A stretch of DNA of 64,000 bases from Flavobacteriales bacterium (GTDB taxonomy: Bacteria; Bacteroidota; Bacteroidia; Flavobacteriales_C; GCA-002722245), in the NCBI GenBank assembly GCA_002717515.1, contig PBEC01000018.1, positions 198,630-262,629 on the forward strand, written 5' to 3'. Below are positions 3,431-57,774 of this stretch, one piece after another; within the stretch, counting starts at the first letter, position 1, and the number at the start of each line of letters is the position of its first letter. The position numbers and the translations under genes were made by a program. The notes beneath the pieces are model-generated. The model made no database searches. It was not told the origin of the DNA and worked only from the letters and a program-made list of their open reading frames with translations.

Positions 3431-3780
3431 TGACTATCATTCAAAGAAACGATAGATTATATTTGAGTCAAGAGAGTTATTTTGAAAAGGTAAAGAGTCA
3501 ATTGATTAATGATATAAATGATATTCATTTTGAAAAAAAAATAAAATTAATATCATTCAACCAAAGGGAACTTCTAGCGAGCACAGTTACGGTTTATTTA
3601 CAAAAAACATTTACCAAGAGTTCTTCTTTGTTTTATCAATTGATGTATAAAATTGATATTCCTGAAACAACACTAGAATCCAAAATTGTCAATTTCTCAA
3701 TTGATTTTTCAGTTTTGTCGGATTTAGTTTTGAAAAGAGAATTAATGAAAGTACTTACAAGGGAAAAATATTCACGCTAA
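3430..3780 (+). CDS. hypothetical protein (116 aa), translationally coupled (TAATG) to the upstream polyprenyl synthase
   Basis: ORF with ATG overlapping the upstream stop. No recognisable motif. Lys/Ser-rich. Confidence 0.35.
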   Translation: MTIIQRNDRLYLSQESYFEKVKSQLINDINDIHFEKKIKLISFNQRELLASTVTVYLQKTFTKSSSLFYQLMYKIDIPETTLESKIVNFSIDFSVLSDLVLKRELMKVLTREKYSR

Positions 3781-3789
3781 TGGGGTTTA

Positions 3790-5043
3790 CTACTTTTCTT
3801 CAGGATATTTGATGTTGGATAATTCAGCAGTTACCTTTTCTTTTATCTCTATATACATTTTTAAGTTAGCTTGACTTATTGGTTTTGATTTAGGTAGTTT
3901 CTGTTTGTAAGGATCAACTTGACGTCCATTTTTCCAAAATCGGTAACATACATGAGGTCCCGTAGCTAAGCCTGTTGATCCGACAAATCCAATTACATCA
4001 CCTTGATTCACTTTAACACCTGGACGAATACCTTTTTTTATTTTATTCATATGTAAATATTGGGTAGTGTATACAGAATTGTGTTTTATTTTAACATAAT
4101 TCCCGTTATATCGGTTGTATTTTGCATGAGTTATTACTCCTTTAGCTGTGGCATAAATAGGAGTTCCTTTTGGTGCTGCATAATCTGTTCCCAAATGAGG
4201 TTTGTTTCTTTTCTGTACAGGATGATAGCGTCTCATAGAAAATCTTGAAGAAATTCTTGAGAATTTTACAGGGGCTTTTAGAAATTGCCGTCTTAGACCT
4301 CTATTTTCATGATCATAATACTCTGGTTCTCCATTTTGAGAGAACTGAATAGCATAGAATGGTTTTTTGAAATGTTCAAAATATGCGGCCTTTATTCTTT
4401 TTACCCCAATACTTTCTCCGTCTACAACGGTTTCTTCATAAATTACTTTAAATCGATCTCCTTTCTGAATGCGATAAAAGTCGATACTCCATGCATATAC
4501 TTCAGACAAGGCAATAGCTAATTCTGGATTATATCCTTGTTTTTCAAGCGATAAGTAAAGTGAGTTATTTATAATTCCAGAAGCTTCTTTGGTCACAATT
4601 TTTACAGGTTTTTTATCGCGATATATTTTTAAAGAATCTCTTAAATCGTATACGATGTAATTTATTTTGTCGATTTCATAAACTAAAATTTGAGCCTTTT
4701 CTGAGGAGTCATTTTTTTCAAAAACAGTATAATGTCTTCCGGCTCTTAATTTTCTTACATTAAATAGTTTTTTTCCTTCATATGCCATTTTATTCATTGT
4801 GGCATAACTAATACCGTGACTGGTTACTAAATCGCTAAAAAATTGATTTTTTTTCACTTTATCTCCCACAACTTTAAAGGAATCAACGTGAAATCCATAA
4901 AGCATTTGCGGTTCTTTGATAATGGTATCGATTTGATCTGGATTTTTGGTTGTTGAACTGTTTATTTCAGATTCACCACAATTAGTAGTTAATATTAGAA
5001 GTAAAAGGAGTGTAAAAAATAGACTTATTTTAGTTTTAAACAT
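3790..5043 (-). CDS. M23-family metallopeptidase lipoprotein
   Basis: Lipoprotein signal (LLLLILTTNCG). C-terminal HLGTDYAAPKGTPIYA...GSTGLATGPHVCYRF matches the M23/LytM HxxxD...HxH peptidase core. Confidence 0.8.
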   Translation of the reverse strand: MFKTKISLFFTLLLLLILTTNCGESEINSSTTKNPDQIDTIIKEPQMLYGFHVDSFKVVGDKVKKNQFFSDLVTSHGISYATMNKMAYEGKKLFNVRKLRAGRHYTVFEKNDSSEKAQILVYEIDKINYIVYDLRDSLKIYRDKKPVKIVTKEASGIINNSLYLSLEKQGYNPELAIALSEVYAWSIDFYRIQKGDRFKVIYEETVVDGESIGVKRIKAAYFEHFKKPFYAIQFSQNGEPEYYDHENRGLRRQFLKAPVKFSRISSRFSMRRYHPVQKRNKPHLGTDYAAPKGTPIYATAKGVITHAKYNRYNGNYVKIKHNSVYTTQYLHMNKIKKGIRPGVKVNQGDVIGFVGSTGLATGPHVCYRFWKNGRQVDPYKQKLPKSKPISQANLKMYIEIKEKVTAELSNIKYPEEK

Positions 5044-7498: not shown

Positions 7499-8479
7499 CT
7501 AAGGGTTATATTTTGAGTCTCTAAAAATAGTTGTAAAATCCTTATTTGTCATCAATTCATTCAAAGTTACCTCTGGGTTGTTGTCCATATACTCTTTAAT
7601 TATTCTATAACCAATAAAAATACCAGCTCTTCCTGGGGATTCTCTTTCTACTGAAGATACAAATGGTCCGTGTTGTATGAATTTTTTATAGTTTCTATAA
7701 TCTTTAGAGAATAAATGCTCCTTTAATGCGAGATGTTTCCAAAAGGACTTTTCATGGCTGTAGCACCATATCATCTGACGTGTTGTAAATTGAAAACGTA
7801 TTGAGTCCATTACATTTGGCATCATTGCTTCTACAAAATATTCAAGTTTTCCGAGTCCAATCATATTTTCAAGGAGTGTTTCACCATGTATACTTTCTGA
7901 ATATTTATTTTTTGCAAAAGACCTTATTACAATTGGAGTTATGTATTCTTTTTTGTAGTTCTTTGAAAGATATTTCGGAATACGATCTTGGCTATATATT
8001 TCATAATCTTCTCCATAAAACAAATCGATTCCAATTAAAATTTCGTTGTTTTTTACAACAACTGGCGTTGTATAGTTTACACTTGATATATAAGTGTAAA
8101 TAACTGGTAATGAGTCTTTTGGGAAGTAGTGTTTGTAGTGAGAAAAAGCATGGTTTAATTTTTCTTTGATTTTATCGTAGCTGCCGATTTTGGAGTTCCA
8201 GTCGCTAAACAGTTTAATATTGAGTTCATTGTTCAAATAATCATTAAGCTCTAAAAGTTTGGTAGGGTCTTTGTACTCACCGTTTATAAATACAGGATAT
8301 TTAGGAGCTAGTTGATCCAATGAAGTTTCTAAATTTTCAGTATTAATATTGAATAAATCTTGTTCATAGTGACGAAAATCTAATTTTGATTTGCTTTTAG
8401 AAACATCAATTATTAGAGACGGTTCAGAACAAGAAATAAAAAGAATAATAAATAAAAAGAAAATAACAACGTTCTTCAT
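7499..8479 (-). CDS. gldB: gliding-motility lipoprotein GldB-like (326 aa)
   Basis: Lipoprotein signal peptide with Cys (FISCSEPS). Size (~37 kDa) and gldB-gldC tandem context. Assignment by context and recall only. Confidence 0.45.
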   Translation of the reverse strand: MKNVVIFFLFIILFISCSEPSLIIDVSKSKSKLDFRHYEQDLFNINTENLETSLDQLAPKYPVFINGEYKDPTKLLELNDYLNNELNIKLFSDWNSKIGSYDKIKEKLNHAFSHYKHYFPKDSLPVIYTYISSVNYTTPVVVKNNEILIGIDLFYGEDYEIYSQDRIPKYLSKNYKKEYITPIVIRSFAKNKYSESIHGETLLENMIGLGKLEYFVEAMMPNVMDSIRFQFTTRQMIWCYSHEKSFWKHLALKEHLFSKDYRNYKKFIQHGPFVSSVERESPGRAGIFIGYRIIKEYMDNNPEVTLNELMTNKDFTTIFRDSKYNP

Positions 8480-8586
8480 AAAACTATCGACTGCTTTACT
8501 TAATTTCGTAAAGTTAGTTATTGATTGAATAATTAACTTTTAATTATTCACTTTATTTGAAATATTTTTTAATAAAACTCAATACA

Positions 8587-9360
8587 ATGAAAAAAATTAT
8601 CACTTCACTAATTATATTTATACTTAGTTCAAATGTTTATGGTCAAGATATTTCAACTGGTCCTGAATTTAGGAAACATCGTTTTGGATTAAAAGGAACC
8701 CCGGGAGTTGCATATTTTAAGGTTAATAAAACCGGAAAGAAAAATAAAGGTTTGGGATACCATATTGGGGGTGGATTGAATTATGAGTATTCTTTGAGCA
8801 GAAATGTTGCCATTGCTTCAGGTTTGATTTTTTCGCAAACTAATGGAAAAGTTGAGTATACGGATTCTCTGGGATTGGATTATGTAAGTATATCAAACGG
8901 GACTGAAAATAGTGAAAGAGCATACCGGCTTCATTCAAGATCTTATGTCTTTAAGTCTGTTGACATTCCTTTGAAATTTAAATTCAGGACTCCTGAACTA
9001 GGATATTTGACTTACTACCTTGAATTTGGATCTACAGTGAATATAATTTCAGGTGCTTTTGCTCGTAAGAATCTTGTAACACTTAACGAGGGGAATACAC
9101 AGTCTTTACTATCCGGTAATGAGTCTAGTCTGGATGTCGGTAAAGAAGTTGTTTTTCTAAGAGGAGGTGTTAATTTTGGGGGCGGTGTAGAATGGAATGT
9201 TGCGGGGAATACATCTTTGCTTTTTGGTTTAAATGGTAATTTTGGATTCACGAATATTTTAAAGAAAAATTCATCAACTATTTCCTACGATCATGGAGGT
9301 TCTTTTAAAAGAGCAACAAATTTAAATTACATTGCCCTTCAGGTTGGAGTTCAGTTTTAA
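8587..9360 (+). CDS. outer-membrane beta-barrel protein (OMP_b-brl/PorT-like family). The likely start is the internal MKKIITSL.
   Basis: Signal peptide (IIFILSSNVYGQ). Alternating hydrophobic beta-strand pattern. Gly/aromatic-rich. Terminal ..QVGVQF aromatic residue typical of OM barrels. Confidence 0.5.
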   Translation: MKKIITSLIIFILSSNVYGQDISTGPEFRKHRFGLKGTPGVAYFKVNKTGKKNKGLGYHIGGGLNYEYSLSRNVAIASGLIFSQTNGKVEYTDSLGLDYVSISNGTENSERAYRLHSRSYVFKSVDIPLKFKFRTPELGYLTYYLEFGSTVNIISGAFARKNLVTLNEGNTQSLLSGNESSLDVGKEVVFLRGGVNFGGGVEWNVAGNTSLLFGLNGNFGFTNILKKNSSTISYDHGGSFKRATNLNYIALQVGVQF

Positions 9361-9433
9361 AAGTTTTCAAATAAGAGTATTGAGCTTTATTTTTATTTGT
9401 GCATACTAATAACTTCTATTCTATCTTTGTAGT

Positions 9434-11065
9434 ATGAAAATTGCAGCAGCTCAACTTAACTTTCATGTTGGGAATTTTGAATTCAATCGTAAAAAAATAA
9501 TTGATTACATACGGTCAGCCGTTCAAAAGAAAATAGATCTTTTGGTTTTTCCTGAACTGGCCATTTGTGGGTATCCTCCACGTGATTTTTTAGAATTCAA
9601 TGATTTTGTTGAAAAATGTATTGCTAGTATTGAGTCTATTGCTTTGGAAACAAAAGACATTGCTGTTGTCATTGGAGGTCCAAGTAAAAATAACACAGGT
9701 AAAGGTAAGTCTCTATTTAATTCTGCCTATGTTCTTGTAAATGGAAGGGTCAAAGAAATAATAAAAAAAACACTATTACCTACTTATGATGTGTTTGATG
9801 AATATCGTTATTTTGAACAATCTAGAGTTTTCAATGTAATAGAAATAAAAGGGAAAAATATTGGTATAGCGATTTGTGAAGATCTTTGGAATGTTGGGAA
9901 CAACCCATTATATACACAAACACCGGCTTTAGAATTGAAAGAGTTGGGAGCTGAAATAATTGTTAATATTTCTGCTTCTCCATTTTCATATTTGCAGGAT
10001 TCAAATCGGAAAGAAGTTCTAAAAGAAAATACTGAAAAAACTAACATTCCTATTGTTTATTGTAATCATGTTGGGGCTCAAACCGAATTGATTTTTGATG
10101 GGGGATCTTTTTTTATGAATTCAGATGGAAAGGTCGTTAAACAAAGTCCTTTTTTTAGTGAAGATTTGTTGATTTCAGAATTAATAAATGGTCAATTCTT
10201 AAAAGGAAATGTGCAATCGGGAAGTAAAATTCAGTTGATTCATGATGCTTTAATTATGGGCATAAAGGATTATTTTAAAAAGTTAGGCTTTAATAAGGCA
10301 GTTATTGGGTTAAGCGGTGGTATTGATTCAGCGGTTACTTTTGCTTTAGCAGTCCGAGCACTAGGGAATAATAATGTTTTTGGAGTATTAATGCCTTCTC
10401 AATATTCTTCCAATCATTCTATTGATGATGCAAAAAAATTAAGTGAGAATCTTGGTGCTCCATATAAAATAGTGTCTATTGAGGAGATATATTCGGTATA
10501 CAATGAAAAATTGAAGCCTCTTTTTAAGGATTTACCCTTTGGACTGGCCGAAGAAAATTTACAGGCGAGAGCACGAGGGGTTTTATTAATGGCAATATCC
10601 AATAAATTTGGATACATTGTCTTGAATACATCAAATAAAAGTGAAGCAGCTGTTGGCTATGGAACCTTATATGGGGACATGTGTGGGGGATTATCTGTAC
10701 TGGGAGATGTTTATAAAACAGAGGTTTTCGAATTGGCTAGATACATCAATAAGGATGCTGAGGTTATACCTGAAAATTCTATTTTAAAACCGCCTTCAGC
10801 AGAGCTTCGCCCAGACCAAAAAGATTCTGACTCCTTACCAGATTATGATGTTTTGGATAAAGTTTTATTTGAATACATAGAAAATAGAAAAGGGCCAAAA
10901 GAGCTTTTAAAAATGGGGATCGATGAAACTGTTGTCAATCGAGTGCTAAGAATGGTAAACTCTAACGAGTACAAACGATACCAAACACCACCGGTTTTAC
11001 GGATAAGTCATAAGGCTTTTGGTATGGGTAGAAGGATGCCTATAGTAGCAAAATATCTTTTGTGA
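9434..11065 (+). CDS. nadE: glutamine-dependent NAD+ synthetase
   Basis: N-terminal CN-hydrolase domain (KIAAAQLN..FPELAICGY). C-terminal NAD synthetase PP-loop GLSGGIDSAV. 543 aa. Confidence 0.9.
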   Translation: MKIAAAQLNFHVGNFEFNRKKIIDYIRSAVQKKIDLLVFPELAICGYPPRDFLEFNDFVEKCIASIESIALETKDIAVVIGGPSKNNTGKGKSLFNSAYVLVNGRVKEIIKKTLLPTYDVFDEYRYFEQSRVFNVIEIKGKNIGIAICEDLWNVGNNPLYTQTPALELKELGAEIIVNISASPFSYLQDSNRKEVLKENTEKTNIPIVYCNHVGAQTELIFDGGSFFMNSDGKVVKQSPFFSEDLLISELINGQFLKGNVQSGSKIQLIHDALIMGIKDYFKKLGFNKAVIGLSGGIDSAVTFALAVRALGNNNVFGVLMPSQYSSNHSIDDAKKLSENLGAPYKIVSIEEIYSVYNEKLKPLFKDLPFGLAEENLQARARGVLLMAISNKFGYIVLNTSNKSEAAVGYGTLYGDMCGGLSVLGDVYKTEVFELARYINKDAEVIPENSILKPPSAELRPDQKDSDSLPDYDVLDKVLFEYIENRKGPKELLKMGIDETVVNRVLRMVNSNEYKRYQTPPVLRISHKAFGMGRRMPIVAKYLL

Positions 11066-30895: not shown

Positions 30896-31219
30896 TTGAA
30901 AGAGCGAATGAAAATAAAAAATATGTTTGGATTGAATGATAAGGGGTTTTTTAAAAACTTACCCTTTATCCTCTTTCTTTCATTATTGGGCTTTTTGTAC
31001 ATAACAAACTCTTACTCTTTTGACGAAACGGTTCGCGAAATGGATGCTATTAAGAACGAAATTAACGATCAAAACAATGAGTTTGTTATTACCAAGACTC
31101 AGGTTAGTATAAAAGGACAAAGAAACGAAGTGGTTAATAAAGTTGAGCAGTTGGGTTTAAAAGAGAGTAAGAAGCCGCCTTTTCAGTTGAAAAAAGAAAA
31201 TGAAAAAATAGATAAATAA
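30896..31219 (+). CDS. ftsL: FtsL-like cell division protein (bitopic)
   Basis: Position between rsmH and ftsI. Single TM (LPFILFLSLLGFLYI). Coiled-coil-like periplasmic part. 107 aa. Confidence 0.55.
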   Translation: MKERMKIKNMFGLNDKGFFKNLPFILFLSLLGFLYITNSYSFDETVREMDAIKNEINDQNNEFVITKTQVSIKGQRNEVVNKVEQLGLKESKKPPFQLKKENEKIDK

Positions 31220-37353: not shown

Positions 37354-37902
37354 ATGACAAAGGGCAATTTTGAATTTCAGAGTAAGTTAAGCGTTGGTGA
37401 TACAATGGCTGAAAACTTAAAAGAAAATGTTGAAAACTTAAGAAAGGATAGCTTAAGAGAAAAATTTAGTGACTTCGAGAATGTTGAACATCGCTTGGAA
37501 TTTGTTGCTAATGTGCACGGTATTGAGTACATTAATGACTCAAAAGCCACCAATGTAAATTCCACTTGGTATGCTTTGGAAAGAATGAAAAGGCAAACCG
37601 TTTGGATTGTTGGAGGCGTTGATAAAACAATTGATTATTCATCACTTCAAGAATTATCTAAGGAAAAAGTTAGAGCGATTGTGTATATTGGTACCAACAA
37701 ATCTAAAATATTTGAAAACTTTTTGGATAAGGTTGATATGATTGTAGACGCTGGATCAATGGAAGAAGCTGTGCAAATGGCATATTATATAGCAGATAAA
37801 GGAGAAACAGTTTTGTTGTCACCAGCTTCTGCGAGTTTTAATATGTTTGAGAATTTGGAGGAAAGAGGCAATGCCTTTAAACAAGCTGTTAGAAGCTTAT
37901 AA
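37354..37902 (+). CDS. stand-alone MurD C-terminal-domain paralogue (Mur ligase C-terminal domain protein, 182 aa)
   Basis: Residues 45-182 align colinearly, at about 50% identity by eye, with the C-terminal domain of the adjacent MurD. Example: EHRLEFVANVHGIEYINDSKATNVNSTWYALE...TVLLSPASASFNMFENLEERGNAFKQAV versus EHRMERVMKINGVEYINDSKATNVDSAFYALE...TVLLSPACASFDLFKNYQDRGEKFKQGI. Own ATG 14 nt after the murD stop. No frameshifts. Confidence 0.7.
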   Translation: MTKGNFEFQSKLSVGDTMAENLKENVENLRKDSLREKFSDFENVEHRLEFVANVHGIEYINDSKATNVNSTWYALERMKRQTVWIVGGVDKTIDYSSLQELSKEKVRAIVYIGTNKSKIFENFLDKVDMIVDAGSMEEAVQMAYYIADKGETVLLSPASASFNMFENLEERGNAFKQAVRSL

Positions 37903-37914
37903 TTAATTGTTGCT

Positions 37915-38046
37915 ATGGAAGAAGTAAAACCCGATAAAAGTAGAGAGGTAAAACTCCTTGTTACTATTATTGCTTCTAGTGTGCTTTTGTTCTTGATTTT
38001 TAGTATTGTTTGGGTGATAAAAAGAGTCAAGGAAGGAGTATCCTAA
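37915..38046 (+). CDS. 43-aa single-TM micro-protein candidate (MEEVKPDKSREVKLLVTIIASSVLLFLIFSIVWVIKRVKEGVS), below the ORF-track size cutoff
   Basis: ATG 13 nt after the upstream stop. Its stop is 4 nt before the ftsW ATG. Charged N-terminus, 22-residue hydrophobic helix, and a positive KR after the helix. Confidence 0.4.
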   Translation: MEEVKPDKSREVKLLVTIIASSVLLFLIFSIVWVIKRVKEGVS

Positions 38047-39202: not shown

Positions 39203-40283
39203 TGGTGGCGGAACAGGAGGACATATTTTTCCTGCTGTAGCCATAGCAAATGCAATTAAACTAAAATATCCCGATGCAAATATCCTTTTTGTTGGTGCAA
39301 AAGGCAAAATGGAAATGGAAAAAGTCCCCAAAGCGGGATACCCTATTGAAGGCCTTTGGATTAGTGGTATTCAACGAAAACTGACAATTTCCAACCTGTC
39401 TTTTCCTTTCAAACTCATTTCAAGTTTATGGAAATCTCGAAATATAATTAAACGCTTTAATCCTGATTTATGTATAGGCGTTGGAGGGTTTGCAAGTGGA
39501 CCACTTTTAAAGGCTGCTACATGGGCAGGAATTCCAACATTGATTCACGAATCGAACTCTTATCCGGGGATTACTAATAAATTATTGGGTAAAAATGTTA
39601 ATACAGTTTGTGTTGCTTTTCAAGGAATGGAAAAGTTCTTCCCAAAGGCTAAAAAACTGGTAATTACAGGTAACCCTGTTCGTCAAGAAATTTTGAATTT
39701 GGATGGTAAAAAAGAAAAAGGTTTGCGTGATTTTGGTTTGGAAGCAGATAAGCCTGTTGTTTTGTCAATAGGAGGAAGTCAAGGAGCCAGAAGTATTAAT
39801 CAAGCTTTGGATGATGATTTAGAAAAATTTGTGGAAAAAGGGTATCAATTGTTATGGCAAACAGGTAAGTTTTATAAAACAAAATCTCAAGATAGAGTTG
39901 ACAAAATCGGGAGTAATTTAATTCACCCTCATGAGTTTATTTATACTATGGACTTGGCCTATTCAGTTGCTGATGTAGTTGTTTCCAGATCTGGCGCAAT
40001 GTCCGTTACTGAATTGAGTTTAGTTGGAAAGCCTTGTGTGCTTGTCCCTTTTCCTTTTGCTGCTGAAGACCACCAAACTGCAAATGCAATGGCGTTAGTT
40101 AATAATAATGCTGGGGTTTTAGTTAAGGATTCTGAAGTTAAAAATAAACTTTTTCAAGCCGTAGACAGTCTTCTCTCTGATGAAGAAAAAAGAAGAACCT
40201 TAAAACGAAATATTGAGAAGTTAAAAATTGAAAATGCTGCTGATTTAATAATGGCAGAAGTAAATAAACTTTTGGAAAATTGA
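39174..40283 (+). CDS. murG: UDP-N-acetylglucosamine--N-acetylmuramyl-(pentapeptide) pyrophosphoryl-undecaprenol N-acetylglucosamine transferase
   Basis: GGTGGHIFPA N-terminal motif and C-terminal GGSQGA. 369 aa. Confidence 0.9.
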   Translation: MKKSPKVIISGGGTGGHIFPAVAIANAIKLKYPDANILFVGAKGKMEMEKVPKAGYPIEGLWISGIQRKLTISNLSFPFKLISSLWKSRNIIKRFNPDLCIGVGGFASGPLLKAATWAGIPTLIHESNSYPGITNKLLGKNVNTVCVAFQGMEKFFPKAKKLVITGNPVRQEILNLDGKKEKGLRDFGLEADKPVVLSIGGSQGARSINQALDDDLEKFVEKGYQLLWQTGKFYKTKSQDRVDKIGSNLIHPHEFIYTMDLAYSVADVVVSRSGAMSVTELSLVGKPCVLVPFPFAAEDHQTANAMALVNNNAGVLVKDSEVKNKLFQAVDSLLSDEEKRRTLKRNIEKLKIENAADLIMAEVNKLLEN

Positions 40284-41644
40284 CAATAAAAAAAAACATA
40301 TACTTTATTGGTGTTGGCGGTATAGGAATGAGTGCTCTTGCTCGTTATTTTCTGGCATTGGGTTGTAAGGTTTCCGGTTACGATAAAACAGAAACTGCAC
40401 TTACAAAAAAATTGGAAAATGAGGGAGTAAAAATTCATTACGAAGACAATGTTTCGCTAATTGATAAGGAATTCTTGTCCTTGGAAAATACGTTGGTAAT
40501 TTTGACACCTGCGGTTCCCAAGAATCATTCTGAGTGGAATTTTTTTAAACGATCAGGTTTTGAAATTTTAAAAAGAGCCCAAGTATTAGGTAAAATTACT
40601 GAATCAAATAAAAGTATTGGTGTTGCAGGTACTCATGGAAAAACTACAATATCAAGTATGATATCTCATATTTTTAAATTTTGCAACGTTCCTTTTACTG
40701 CATTTTTAGGGGGTATTTCTAAGGATTTAGGAAGTAATTATTATCATGATTTAAATAGTCAAATTACAGTTGTAGAGGCCGATGAGTATGATCGGTCATT
40801 TTTAGAATTAAAACCCACTTTTGCAACAGTTTCTGCAATTGATGCAGATCATTTGGATATTTATGGTACAAAGGAAGAAATGCAAAAAGCTTTCAGACAG
40901 TATTTGGATCAAAATTTACAGAAACAAGGAGTAGCAATCATCCACAGTTCGTTAACTGAAGTTTTAGGCAAAAAGTATAAAACGTATTCAATTGATGATG
41001 AATCAGCAGATTATTATGCTGCTAATTTTAGGGTAGAAAATGCTGATTTTTTTGGAGATTTTAAATGGTCGGGCGGTGAAATAAAAGACGTCAAAATTGG
41101 TTTGCCGGGAATACATAACATGGAAAATGCTTTGCTGGCTTTTGGAATTGCCTTAGAAAACGGAATTGAACCTGTTAAAATTAAGGAGGCAATAGGCAAT
41201 TATAGTGGTGTTGAAAGGAGATTTGACGTTCATATAAAATCAGATAATTTAATTTACATTGATGACTATGCTCATCACCCTGAAGAGATAAAAAAGCTTG
41301 TAACTTCTGTTCGAAAAATGTACCCTGAAAAAAATATTTTAGGTGTTTTTCAACCGCATTTGTTCTCTCGTACTCAAGATTTCGCAGATGAATTTGCAAG
41401 GAGTTTAGAGTTGTTGGATGAATTGTTGCTTTTAGATATTTATCCAGCTCGCGAGTTACCGATTCCTGGGGTCAATTCCAGAATGCTTTTTGATCGAATT
41501 AACATGAATTCAAAAACGCTTTGTTCAAAAAAACAGCTTACACACTATGTTGGTGTATCTAAATGTGACGTAGTTTTAACTATAGGTGCTGGAGATATCG
41601 GTGCTGAAGTTGAAAATTTGAAAGAATTCTTGTTGAAACACTAA
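40280..41644 (+). CDS. murC: UDP-N-acetylmuramate--L-alanine ligase
   Basis: IGVGGIGMSALA N-domain. P-loop GVAGTHGKTT. Confidence 0.95.
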   Translation: MTIKKNIYFIGVGGIGMSALARYFLALGCKVSGYDKTETALTKKLENEGVKIHYEDNVSLIDKEFLSLENTLVILTPAVPKNHSEWNFFKRSGFEILKRAQVLGKITESNKSIGVAGTHGKTTISSMISHIFKFCNVPFTAFLGGISKDLGSNYYHDLNSQITVVEADEYDRSFLELKPTFATVSAIDADHLDIYGTKEEMQKAFRQYLDQNLQKQGVAIIHSSLTEVLGKKYKTYSIDDESADYYAANFRVENADFFGDFKWSGGEIKDVKIGLPGIHNMENALLAFGIALENGIEPVKIKEAIGNYSGVERRFDVHIKSDNLIYIDDYAHHPEEIKKLVTSVRKMYPEKNILGVFQPHLFSRTQDFADEFARSLELLDELLLLDIYPARELPIPGVNSRMLFDRINMNSKTLCSKKQLTHYVGVSKCDVVLTIGAGDIGAEVENLKEFLLKH

Positions 41645-57571: not shown

Positions 57572-57653
57572 TATTTTTTTTATTGTAACAATAAACCTAT
57601 CGGAAAAATGAGATTAAATAAGAGAGTGATTTTTGACCTACAATTGTTTTCAT

Positions 57654-57752
57654 TTTATCTTTCCCATTGGGTTTTGGGTTGGACGTAGCACCTTCCAAAT
57701 CTTGGATTTGCCAAGGTTTCATAGGGCCATTCCCTTCACCTTTTATGATAAG
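57654..57752 (-). promoter_or_regulatory. SAM-I (S-box) riboswitch in the 5' leader of the split metH operon
   Basis: Minus-strand RNA CUUAUCA..AAGGUGAAGGGAAUGGCCCUAUGAAACCUUGGCAA..GGUGCUACGUCCAAC..GGGAAAGAUAA matches the SAM-I consensus: P1 CUUAUC/GAUAAG, GGUGGAGGGAcUGGCCCgAUGAAaCCcGGCAACC, GGUGCuAAuUCC. Confidence 0.8.
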
Positions 57753-57774
57753 CGATTAAAAAGAACTTTGGAAT

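Follow-up and report, generated by a model that had tools for sequence, protein, structure and literature searches.

A gene for a predicted single-helix membrane micro-protein under purifying selection directly upstream of ftsW in the dcw operon of uncultured marine Flavobacteriales

We found that nucleotides 37915–38046 of a 64,000-nucleotide stretch of Flavobacteriales DNA (hereafter the window) are a protein-coding gene under purifying selection, and we regard it as almost certain that this is a real gene for a membrane micro-protein. Translation of the ORF yields MEEVKPDKSREVKLLVTIIASSVLLFLIFSIVWVIKRVKEGVS, one peptide of which is EVKLLVTIIASSVLLFLIFSIVWVIK. Its sequence and spacing were confirmed as given in a preliminary description of this DNA, and so was its location inside the packed dcw operon directly before ftsW, with 12 nt separating its ATG from the stop codon of a 182-aa gene for a stand-alone Mur ligase C-terminal domain (MurD-C) and 4 nt separating its own stop codon from the ftsW ATG. 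The window carries a complete dcw operon on its + strand (Table 1). The DNA between murD and ftsW showed no terminator-like site and matched nothing in Rfam (E ≤ 1), and on these grounds we rejected an attenuator or structured RNA as an explanation of the stretch. Since no terminator-like site or RNA element intervenes, and since the micro-protein stop codon falls 0–8 nt before the ftsW start in the loci compared below, we infer that the micro-protein shares the dcw transcript of FtsW; translational coupling, and with it joint production of the two proteins, is probable.

Table 1. The dcw operon of the window and the parts of the micro-protein gene (window coordinates)
Feature	Position	Strand	Details
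rsmH	29998	+	
FtsL_2-family gene	30896–31219	+	PF19579 (Pfam)
ftsI	31220	+	
murE	33301	+	
mraY	34764	+	
murD, complete, 446 aa	36000–37340	+	TIGR01087, 407.6 bits, model positions 2–437 of 441
Stand-alone Mur_ligase_C protein (MurD-C paralogue), 182 aa	37354–37902	+	PF02875; TIGR01087 positions 287–440
Micro-protein gene, 43 codons + TAA	37915–38046	+	ATG 37915, TAA 38044–38046
N-tail motif K5-P6-D7-x3-E11	37927–37947	+	K5 and E11 invariant, P6 and D7 nearly so (per-column entropy, 24 proteins)
Hydrophobic transmembrane helix L14–I35 (predicted)	37954–38019	+	22 uncharged residues, mean Kyte-Doolittle 2.8
Juxtamembrane basic motif K36-[KR]37-x-K39-x-G41	38020–38037	+	K36, K39 and G41 invariant
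ftsW, 383 aa	38051–39202	+	PF01098, 196 bits; TIGR02614, 224 bits
murG, murC, ftsQ, ftsA, ftsZ			Downstream of ftsW; murG directly after ftsW

Three further observations concern the window itself. A Bacteroidetes-type −7 promoter motif (TATGTTTG) lies at 37842–37849 (+), with a TTG ~33 nt upstream of it, within the 3′ end of the MurD-C gene and 66 nt before the micro-protein ATG. This motif occurs about once per 1.7 kb in the region, so that the copy at 37842–37849, which overlaps the conserved SFNMFEN codons of MurD-C, may be due to chance. The only Rfam match in the window above the gathering threshold was a SAM riboswitch (RF00162) at 57652–57754 (−; 60.3 bits, E = 1.8e-11). Lastly, the start of murC (40280–41644, +) was called differently in identical sequence, giving either 438 aa from an ATG or 454 aa from a TTG that overlaps murG (8414–9730 in locus L001 vs 8366–9730 in locus L002), and its true start is uncertain.

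The length of the ORF carries no weight as evidence for a gene, because the surrounding 16 kb (34% GC) holds about 50 spurious ORFs of at least 43 aa. We therefore turned to conservation across related loci. The exact micro-protein was present on contigs in 36 blocks of a public assembly collection, always in the same operon, and a word-indexed search returned 18 clusters at 84–100% identity to it. Diverged members came from four GTDB species representatives, all of them metagenome-assembled genomes named ‘Flavobacteriales bacterium’, from the genomic contexts of diverged MurD-C proteins, and from the profile search described below; a metagenome scan contributed 24 further loci. The resulting comparison set held 34 loci with 30 distinct DNA sequences and 24 distinct proteins. 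In all of these loci the micro-protein gene sits between a stand-alone MurD-C gene and ftsW wherever the contig reaches, with MurD-C directly upstream in all 34 loci whose contig extends that far. In all 33 loci reaching ftsW, 0–8 nt separate the stop codon of the micro-protein gene from the ftsW ATG, and the distance from the MurD-C stop to the micro-protein ATG is 10–19 nt (values of 10, 11, 12, 13 or 19 nt) with two exceptions (42 and 135 nt).

The reading frame was open in all distinct sequences (30 of 30, from 34 loci), with 42–44 codons and an ATG at the homologous position, whereas each of the five alternative frames contained stops in some members. Pairwise differences at codon positions 1, 2 and 3 were 0.305, 0.159 and 0.474, respectively. 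Median omega (dN/dS, Nei-Gojobori) was 0.24 over 138 unsaturated pairs, compared with 0.75 and 1.40 in the shifted frames, and silent changes likewise dominated in the closest pairs (dN 0.020 and dS 0.61 between the window and locus L006; dN 0 and dS 0.54 between L006 and L007). An intact frame in 30 of 30 sequences, variability spread over the codon positions as in coding DNA (third > first > second) and a dN/dS far below 1 amount to conservation well beyond chance, and we conclude that this is a coding gene. The competing reading, a chance ORF in AT-rich spacer DNA giving no functional product, could appeal to how common ORFs of similar length are here and to the ease with which T-rich DNA encodes hydrophobic stretches, but neither would account for the intact frame, the codon-position pattern, the omega of 0.24 or the 11 residues that stay invariant despite saturated synonymous divergence. 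A chance ORF is thus excluded for practical purposes, with next to no probability left to it. The preliminary description had named codon-level comparison as a check on its claim, and lack of conservation of the ORF or its hydrophobic segment in orthologous regions as grounds for refutation; on both counts the outcome favored a genuine gene. The micro-protein gene is the fastest-evolving of the four genes compared (mean p-distance 0.37 vs 0.23 for FtsW), and the lowest identity to the window across loci is 41% for the micro-protein vs 51% for FtsW.

Public gene calls for this family vary. Many give a protein of 57–59 aa that starts at an upstream ATG overlapping the 3′ end of the MurD-C gene (for example 3820–3996 in L006, 3820–3996 in L007 and 811–984 in L021). 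The upstream extension is absent or closed by stops in other members, while the ATG of the 42–44-aa form is conserved; because the extension is not conserved, we take the shorter form as the one maintained across the family, and the longer calls probably begin at the wrong ATG. In locus L015 (MurD-C paralogue 81% identical, FtsW 54% identical), a homologous 42-codon gene at 3592–3720 (MKAKIDYKKELRFIFVVATSSILLGVIFCTVWVVKKIKEGVL) was missed by the gene finder, and a 174-nt stretch is listed as intergenic.

The protein has the anatomy of a single-pass membrane micro-protein, as had been proposed. An uncharged run of 21–22 residues with a mean Kyte-Doolittle value of 2.3–2.8 is present in all 24 proteins, and AlphaFold2, given an 8-sequence alignment, predicted one continuous helix over residues 7–40 (mean pLDDT 82.8). 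That the helix spans the cytoplasmic membrane once is strongly inferred. It is preceded by 13 residues and followed by 8, and in the window protein KRVK follows directly after L14–I35. The N-terminal flank carries 2–5 K+R (net charge −1 to +3) and the C-terminal flank 3–4 K+R (net +2 to +4). Of the 24 members, 19 have the higher positive charge on the C-terminal flank, 3 are balanced and 2 have it on the N-terminal flank. This charge balance leans weakly toward a cytoplasmic C-terminus, and the orientation is ambiguous by the positive-inside rule because both flanks are basic. The ‘textbook topology’ first ascribed to the protein was in this respect overstated.

Eleven positions are invariant among the 24 proteins (K5, E11, S21, L25, I28, F29, V32, W33, K36, K39 and G41), and the six of these within the helix, S21, L25, I28, F29, V32 and W33, fall on one face. 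The helical conservation moment was 0.266, compared with 0.124 ± 0.063 in 10,000 shuffles, a modest statistic (p = 0.02). Such one-sided conservation would be consistent with a specific helix-helix contact and, equally, with self-association.

We then examined how widely the family occurs. A HMMER profile search of 1.84 billion representative proteins recovered only five genuine clusters at 50% identity (42–58 aa). Two further matches were spurious repeat proteins, and the top non-family match (P0139, 1101 aa) was a translated tandem repeat. Pfam at E ≤ 0.1 returned only sub-threshold matches to DUF4234 (15.1 bits, cut-off 25.3) and EssA (13.9 bits, cut-off 24.1), NCBIfam returned no match to the micro-protein, and among PDB sequences there was no significant match, the best being a transmembrane segment of a BK-channel beta subunit (E = 0.33). 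Our literature search found no description of a small ORF between murD and ftsW. We conclude that the micro-protein is a new small-protein family of narrow distribution that carries no functional annotation. The original label ‘unannotated’ is correct in that the gene has no family or functional annotation and went uncalled in L015, and too strong in that the exact protein and its relatives are present as ‘hypothetical protein’ in IMG, Tara and other catalogues.

Several possible origins of the gene were considered and rejected. A phage origin was set aside on finding no relative in 2.9 million viral contigs. Searching the family HMM against 1192 six-frame ORFs of the window gave nothing above 7.3 bits except the micro-protein itself, so that descent from a duplicated FtsW N-terminus or from another transmembrane segment of the operon is undetectable at that level. 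A split-off piece of FtsW was likewise rejected, as the FtsW N-terminus is complete and collinear with that of relatives lacking the micro-protein gene. Finally, although the gene is in frame with MurD-C in the window, this frame relation is not conserved in relatives, and a read-through product or fusion with MurD-C was discarded.

The gene is confined to one clade of uncultured marine Flavobacteriales, as judged from the loci compared: every lineage that has it carries a MurD-C paralogue with at least 81% identity to that of the window. In L049 (MurD-C 72% identical) a 32-nt spacer and then ftsW follow the paralogue, and in L011/L012 (66% identical) a 16-nt spacer and then ftsW; L018 has a different, 173-aa MurD-C paralogue followed by ftsW, and L010 has a canonical murD, no paralogue, and then ftsW. 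None of these loci has the micro-protein gene, and the expectation that it would be conserved across Bacteroidetes dcw clusters was not borne out. L016, with a MurD-C 82% identical to that of the window, also keeps no micro-protein gene beside MurD-C, and its operon ends in a terminator-like hairpin. There, at 3553–3766, the dcw operon stops after MurD-C with a strong hairpin and T-run (AAAAAGCCCCATTAATGGGGCTTTTTT), and unrelated genes follow on the other strand, so that ftsW, with the division genes downstream of it, must be located in another part of that genome.

A different ORF occupies the MurD-C/ftsW slot in the freshwater loci L013 and L014, whose paralogue is 76% identical to that of the window. 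This 71-aa single-helix ORF (4565–4780) overlaps the ftsW start by 17 nt and belongs to a single database cluster. Comparing L013 with L014, we counted 11 silent vs 4 replacement differences (pN/pS 0.11), and the ORF looks selected. It scored 10.1 bits against the family HMM, compared with 5.1 for the best of 500 shuffles and 7.3 for the best of the 1192 window ORFs. On this marginal evidence of homology, the 71-aa ORF could be either a diverged homologue or an independent invention.

The upstream neighbor of the micro-protein gene is itself unusual. The 182-aa MurD-C shows 44% identity to the C-terminal third of the MurD encoded beside it and can be aligned with domain 3 in solved structures of MurD. 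It has the domain-3 motifs EHR, NDSKATN, GGxDK and SPAxASF in common with the resident MurD, and its N-terminal region of ~27–45 aa is conserved and unrelated. It is ~57% identical to the MurD C-termini of other Flavobacteriales, compared with the 44% to its co-resident MurD. With an omega of 0.01–0.02 and a mean p-distance of 0.097 (vs 0.295 for full MurD and 0.231 for FtsW), it changes at one-third of the rate of MurD and is better conserved than FtsW, a pattern that indicates a functional protein under extreme purifying selection. MurD-C was found in more lineages than the micro-protein and its constraint is extraordinary; of the two, it may be the lead of greater importance. Our literature search on stand-alone Mur ligase C domains found nothing relevant. 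An assignment as the MurL of a MurD2/MurL pathway was not supported, as only murD matched among the NCBIfam models; the only carriers of MurD2/MurL listed in a review are certain genera of proteobacteria and actinobacteria, without mention of Bacteroidetes.

The 182-aa ‘paralogues’ at ~57% identity (P0138 and P0131) proved to be C-terminal fragments of murD genes frameshifted in poor assemblies, and were left out of the paralogue census. Frameshifted murD loci of this kind occur in L010 (3345–4549) and L017 (2354–3549), and a census by length alone would be contaminated by them. On the Flavobacteriales-like contig of L018, the 173-aa MurD-C (566–1087), which lies between murD and ftsW, is 36% identical to that of the window; because so diverged a paralogue exists, retention of a stand-alone MurD domain 3 may be older, or recurrent.

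What the micro-protein does is best approached through its neighbors, and we tentatively favor, at somewhat short of even confidence, a lineage-specific accessory subunit of FtsW, of FtsW-FtsI or of their immediate divisome neighbors. A divisome role of some kind is plausible, and a regulatory role on FtsW is suggested by gene position only. In the mechanism we envisage, the micro-protein would join the septal peptidoglycan synthase (FtsW, possibly FtsW-FtsI) as an accessory subunit, its conserved face (S21, L25, I28, F29, V32, W33) would pack against a partner transmembrane helix, and the invariant KKxKxG and KPDxxxE motifs would each lie at one surface of the membrane; in the manner of KdpF and CydX, the peptide might stabilize or tune the large enzyme of the neighboring gene. 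We favor FtsW as the partner because the tight, invariable junction is the one with ftsW (0–8 nt), because L016, from which ftsW has moved away, keeps no micro-protein gene beside MurD-C, and because a tiny FtsW-binding membrane peptide has precedent in SidA (PMC4211646). The finding that another single-helix ORF, that of 71 aa, fills the same slot before ftsW in the freshwater lineage also speaks for this link. Against it, the gene is just as invariably adjacent to MurD-C, the micro-protein evolves faster than its neighbors, and the helix-face statistic (p = 0.02) would fit self-association as well. Because L049, L011, L018 and L010 do without it, the micro-protein is not a general requirement of Flavobacteriales FtsW.

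The adjacency to MurD-C raises the main alternative, that the micro-protein is a membrane anchor or partner of that protein, one of its short tails (e.g. KPDxxxE) binding soluble MurD-C and holding it near MraY, MurG and FtsW. MurD-C stands upstream in every micro-protein locus that reaches that far, the micro-protein gene is found only within lineages carrying the paralogue, and an omega of 0.01–0.02 marks MurD-C as a functional protein that could need a partner. We nevertheless consider an anchor unlikely, as the paralogue is equally conserved where the micro-protein gene is absent (L011/L012, L049, L016 and L018), L016 among them retaining MurD-C and not the gene; the tails measure just 8 and 13 residues, MurD-C lies at a looser and more variable distance (10–135 nt) than ftsW does, and the reading-frame relation to MurD-C is not conserved, with no read-through fusion. 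Co-evolution was of little help in choosing between the two neighbors. Across 19 complete loci, distance matrices of the micro-protein correlated with those of FtsW (r = 0.74) and MurD-C (r = 0.76), all genes being correlated through their shared phylogeny, and the partial correlations were small, that with MurD-C (0.23) being marginally higher than that with FtsW (0.09); in this mirror-tree and partial-correlation analysis neither protein was separated as the partner. A reading in which both neighbors matter, that MurD-C and the micro-protein form a two-gene module coupling the cytoplasmic precursor pathway to the septal synthase, strikes us as rather improbable. In such a module the micro-protein would tether MurD-C to FtsW, or relay its ligand-bound state, through the membrane, and septal polymerization would be gated by the supply of precursor or of D-glutamate. 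To our knowledge, no regulatory link of this precursor-gating kind has been described for any SEDS protein.

The narrow distribution bears on a further alternative, namely that the gene is a young, lineage-specific membrane peptide that arose from the MurD-C/ftsW spacer and is kept for a generic reason with no specific divisome partner, for instance as a harmless membrane peptide that, in being translated, brings ribosomes to the start of ftsW where initiation is not led by Shine-Dalgarno sequences. Such an origin would sit well with a family of five 50%-identity clusters among 1.84 billion proteins, with sister-lineage spacers of just 16–32 nt, with the fastest evolution among the four genes, with a stop codon 0–8 nt from the ftsW ATG, and with nothing detectably related elsewhere in the window or in viral contigs. 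Coupling alone, however, would not keep 11 invariant residues and an omega of ~0.24, and the helix face and both tail motifs have been conserved although FtsW itself has diverged to 51–67% identity. The invariant residues sit badly with a role as nothing more than a ‘coupling spacer’, and we judge the generic reading as a whole to be a minor possibility.

Small single-helix proteins are routinely missed, yet several are essential tuning subunits of large membrane machines. FtsW and the other SEDS polymerases are central antibiotic-target enzymes whose regulation through the membrane is an open topic. If an accessory role at FtsW is correct, a constitutive, operon-encoded micro-subunit would offer a new handle on SEDS regulation, and would also be a case of a young gene becoming fixed within an operon that ranks among the most conserved in bacteria. 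Its family is narrow and occurs in uncultured marine Flavobacteriales, known only from metagenome-assembled genomes, so that broader conclusions would have to be drawn from reconstitution or heterologous work.

Comparison with known small division proteins separates the micro-protein from each of the examples first cited alongside it. The bitopic divisome proteins FtsL and FtsB (DivIC) are, like it, encoded in or near dcw clusters, but they form a periplasmic coiled coil of several dozen residues that assembles into FtsQLB, for which the micro-protein has no room. It matched none of the FtsL/FtsB profiles (PF19579, PF04977 and PF04999), and the 13 + 8 residues that flank its helix include no such coiled coil; kinship with this class was dismissed. 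MciZ is a soluble peptide that binds FtsZ, not a membrane protein. Being dominated by a 22-residue hydrophobic helix, and having no profile match, the micro-protein does not have MciZ as an analogue. Blr of E. coli, a 41-aa bitopic divisome-associated protein, is closer in its similar length and single membrane helix; it is, however, enterobacterial and its gene lies outside the dcw cluster, and library searches (Pfam, NCBIfam and profile search) revealed no similarity.

SidA of Caulobacter crescentus, a 29-aa inner-membrane protein that binds FtsW (PMC4211646), resembles the micro-protein in its very small size and single-helix membrane anatomy, and demonstrates that even so short a peptide is able to engage the FtsW/FtsI/FtsN subcomplex by way of the membrane. 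A role like that of SidA, in which the micro-protein would bind FtsW and keep the synthase inactive until release, could draw on this likeness in size and anatomy to an FtsW-binding peptide (PMC4211646) and on YneA, a single-pass protein reported to act on FtsW (PMC13396833). Yet known inhibitors of this kind are damage-induced genes outside the dcw operon, SidA itself being an SOS-induced inhibitor, while the micro-protein gene is embedded in the operon only 4 nt ahead of ftsW, shows neither a terminator nor a regulatory region of its own, and lacks the separate stress-induced promoter that marks the SidA type; it would be made whenever FtsW is made, and it shows no sequence relationship to any curated family. 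We accordingly consider a conditional inhibitor highly improbable, and a poorer analogy than KdpF or CydX.

KdpF (kdpFABC) and CydX (cydABX) are proteins of 29–40 residues, each consisting essentially of one transmembrane helix, that annotation long overlooked. Each is encoded, tightly spaced, in the same operon as the large membrane protein that it binds and stabilizes or tunes. Their complexes are a transporter and an oxidase rather than a SEDS glycosyltransferase, and we know of no constitutive micro-subunit described for FtsW or RodA. The micro-protein belongs to none of KdpF, CydX, SidA or Blr, and resembles the last two in size and putative target neighborhood; by an analogy of architecture, not of homology, it would work most like the operon-encoded single-helix subunits that KdpF and CydX represent.
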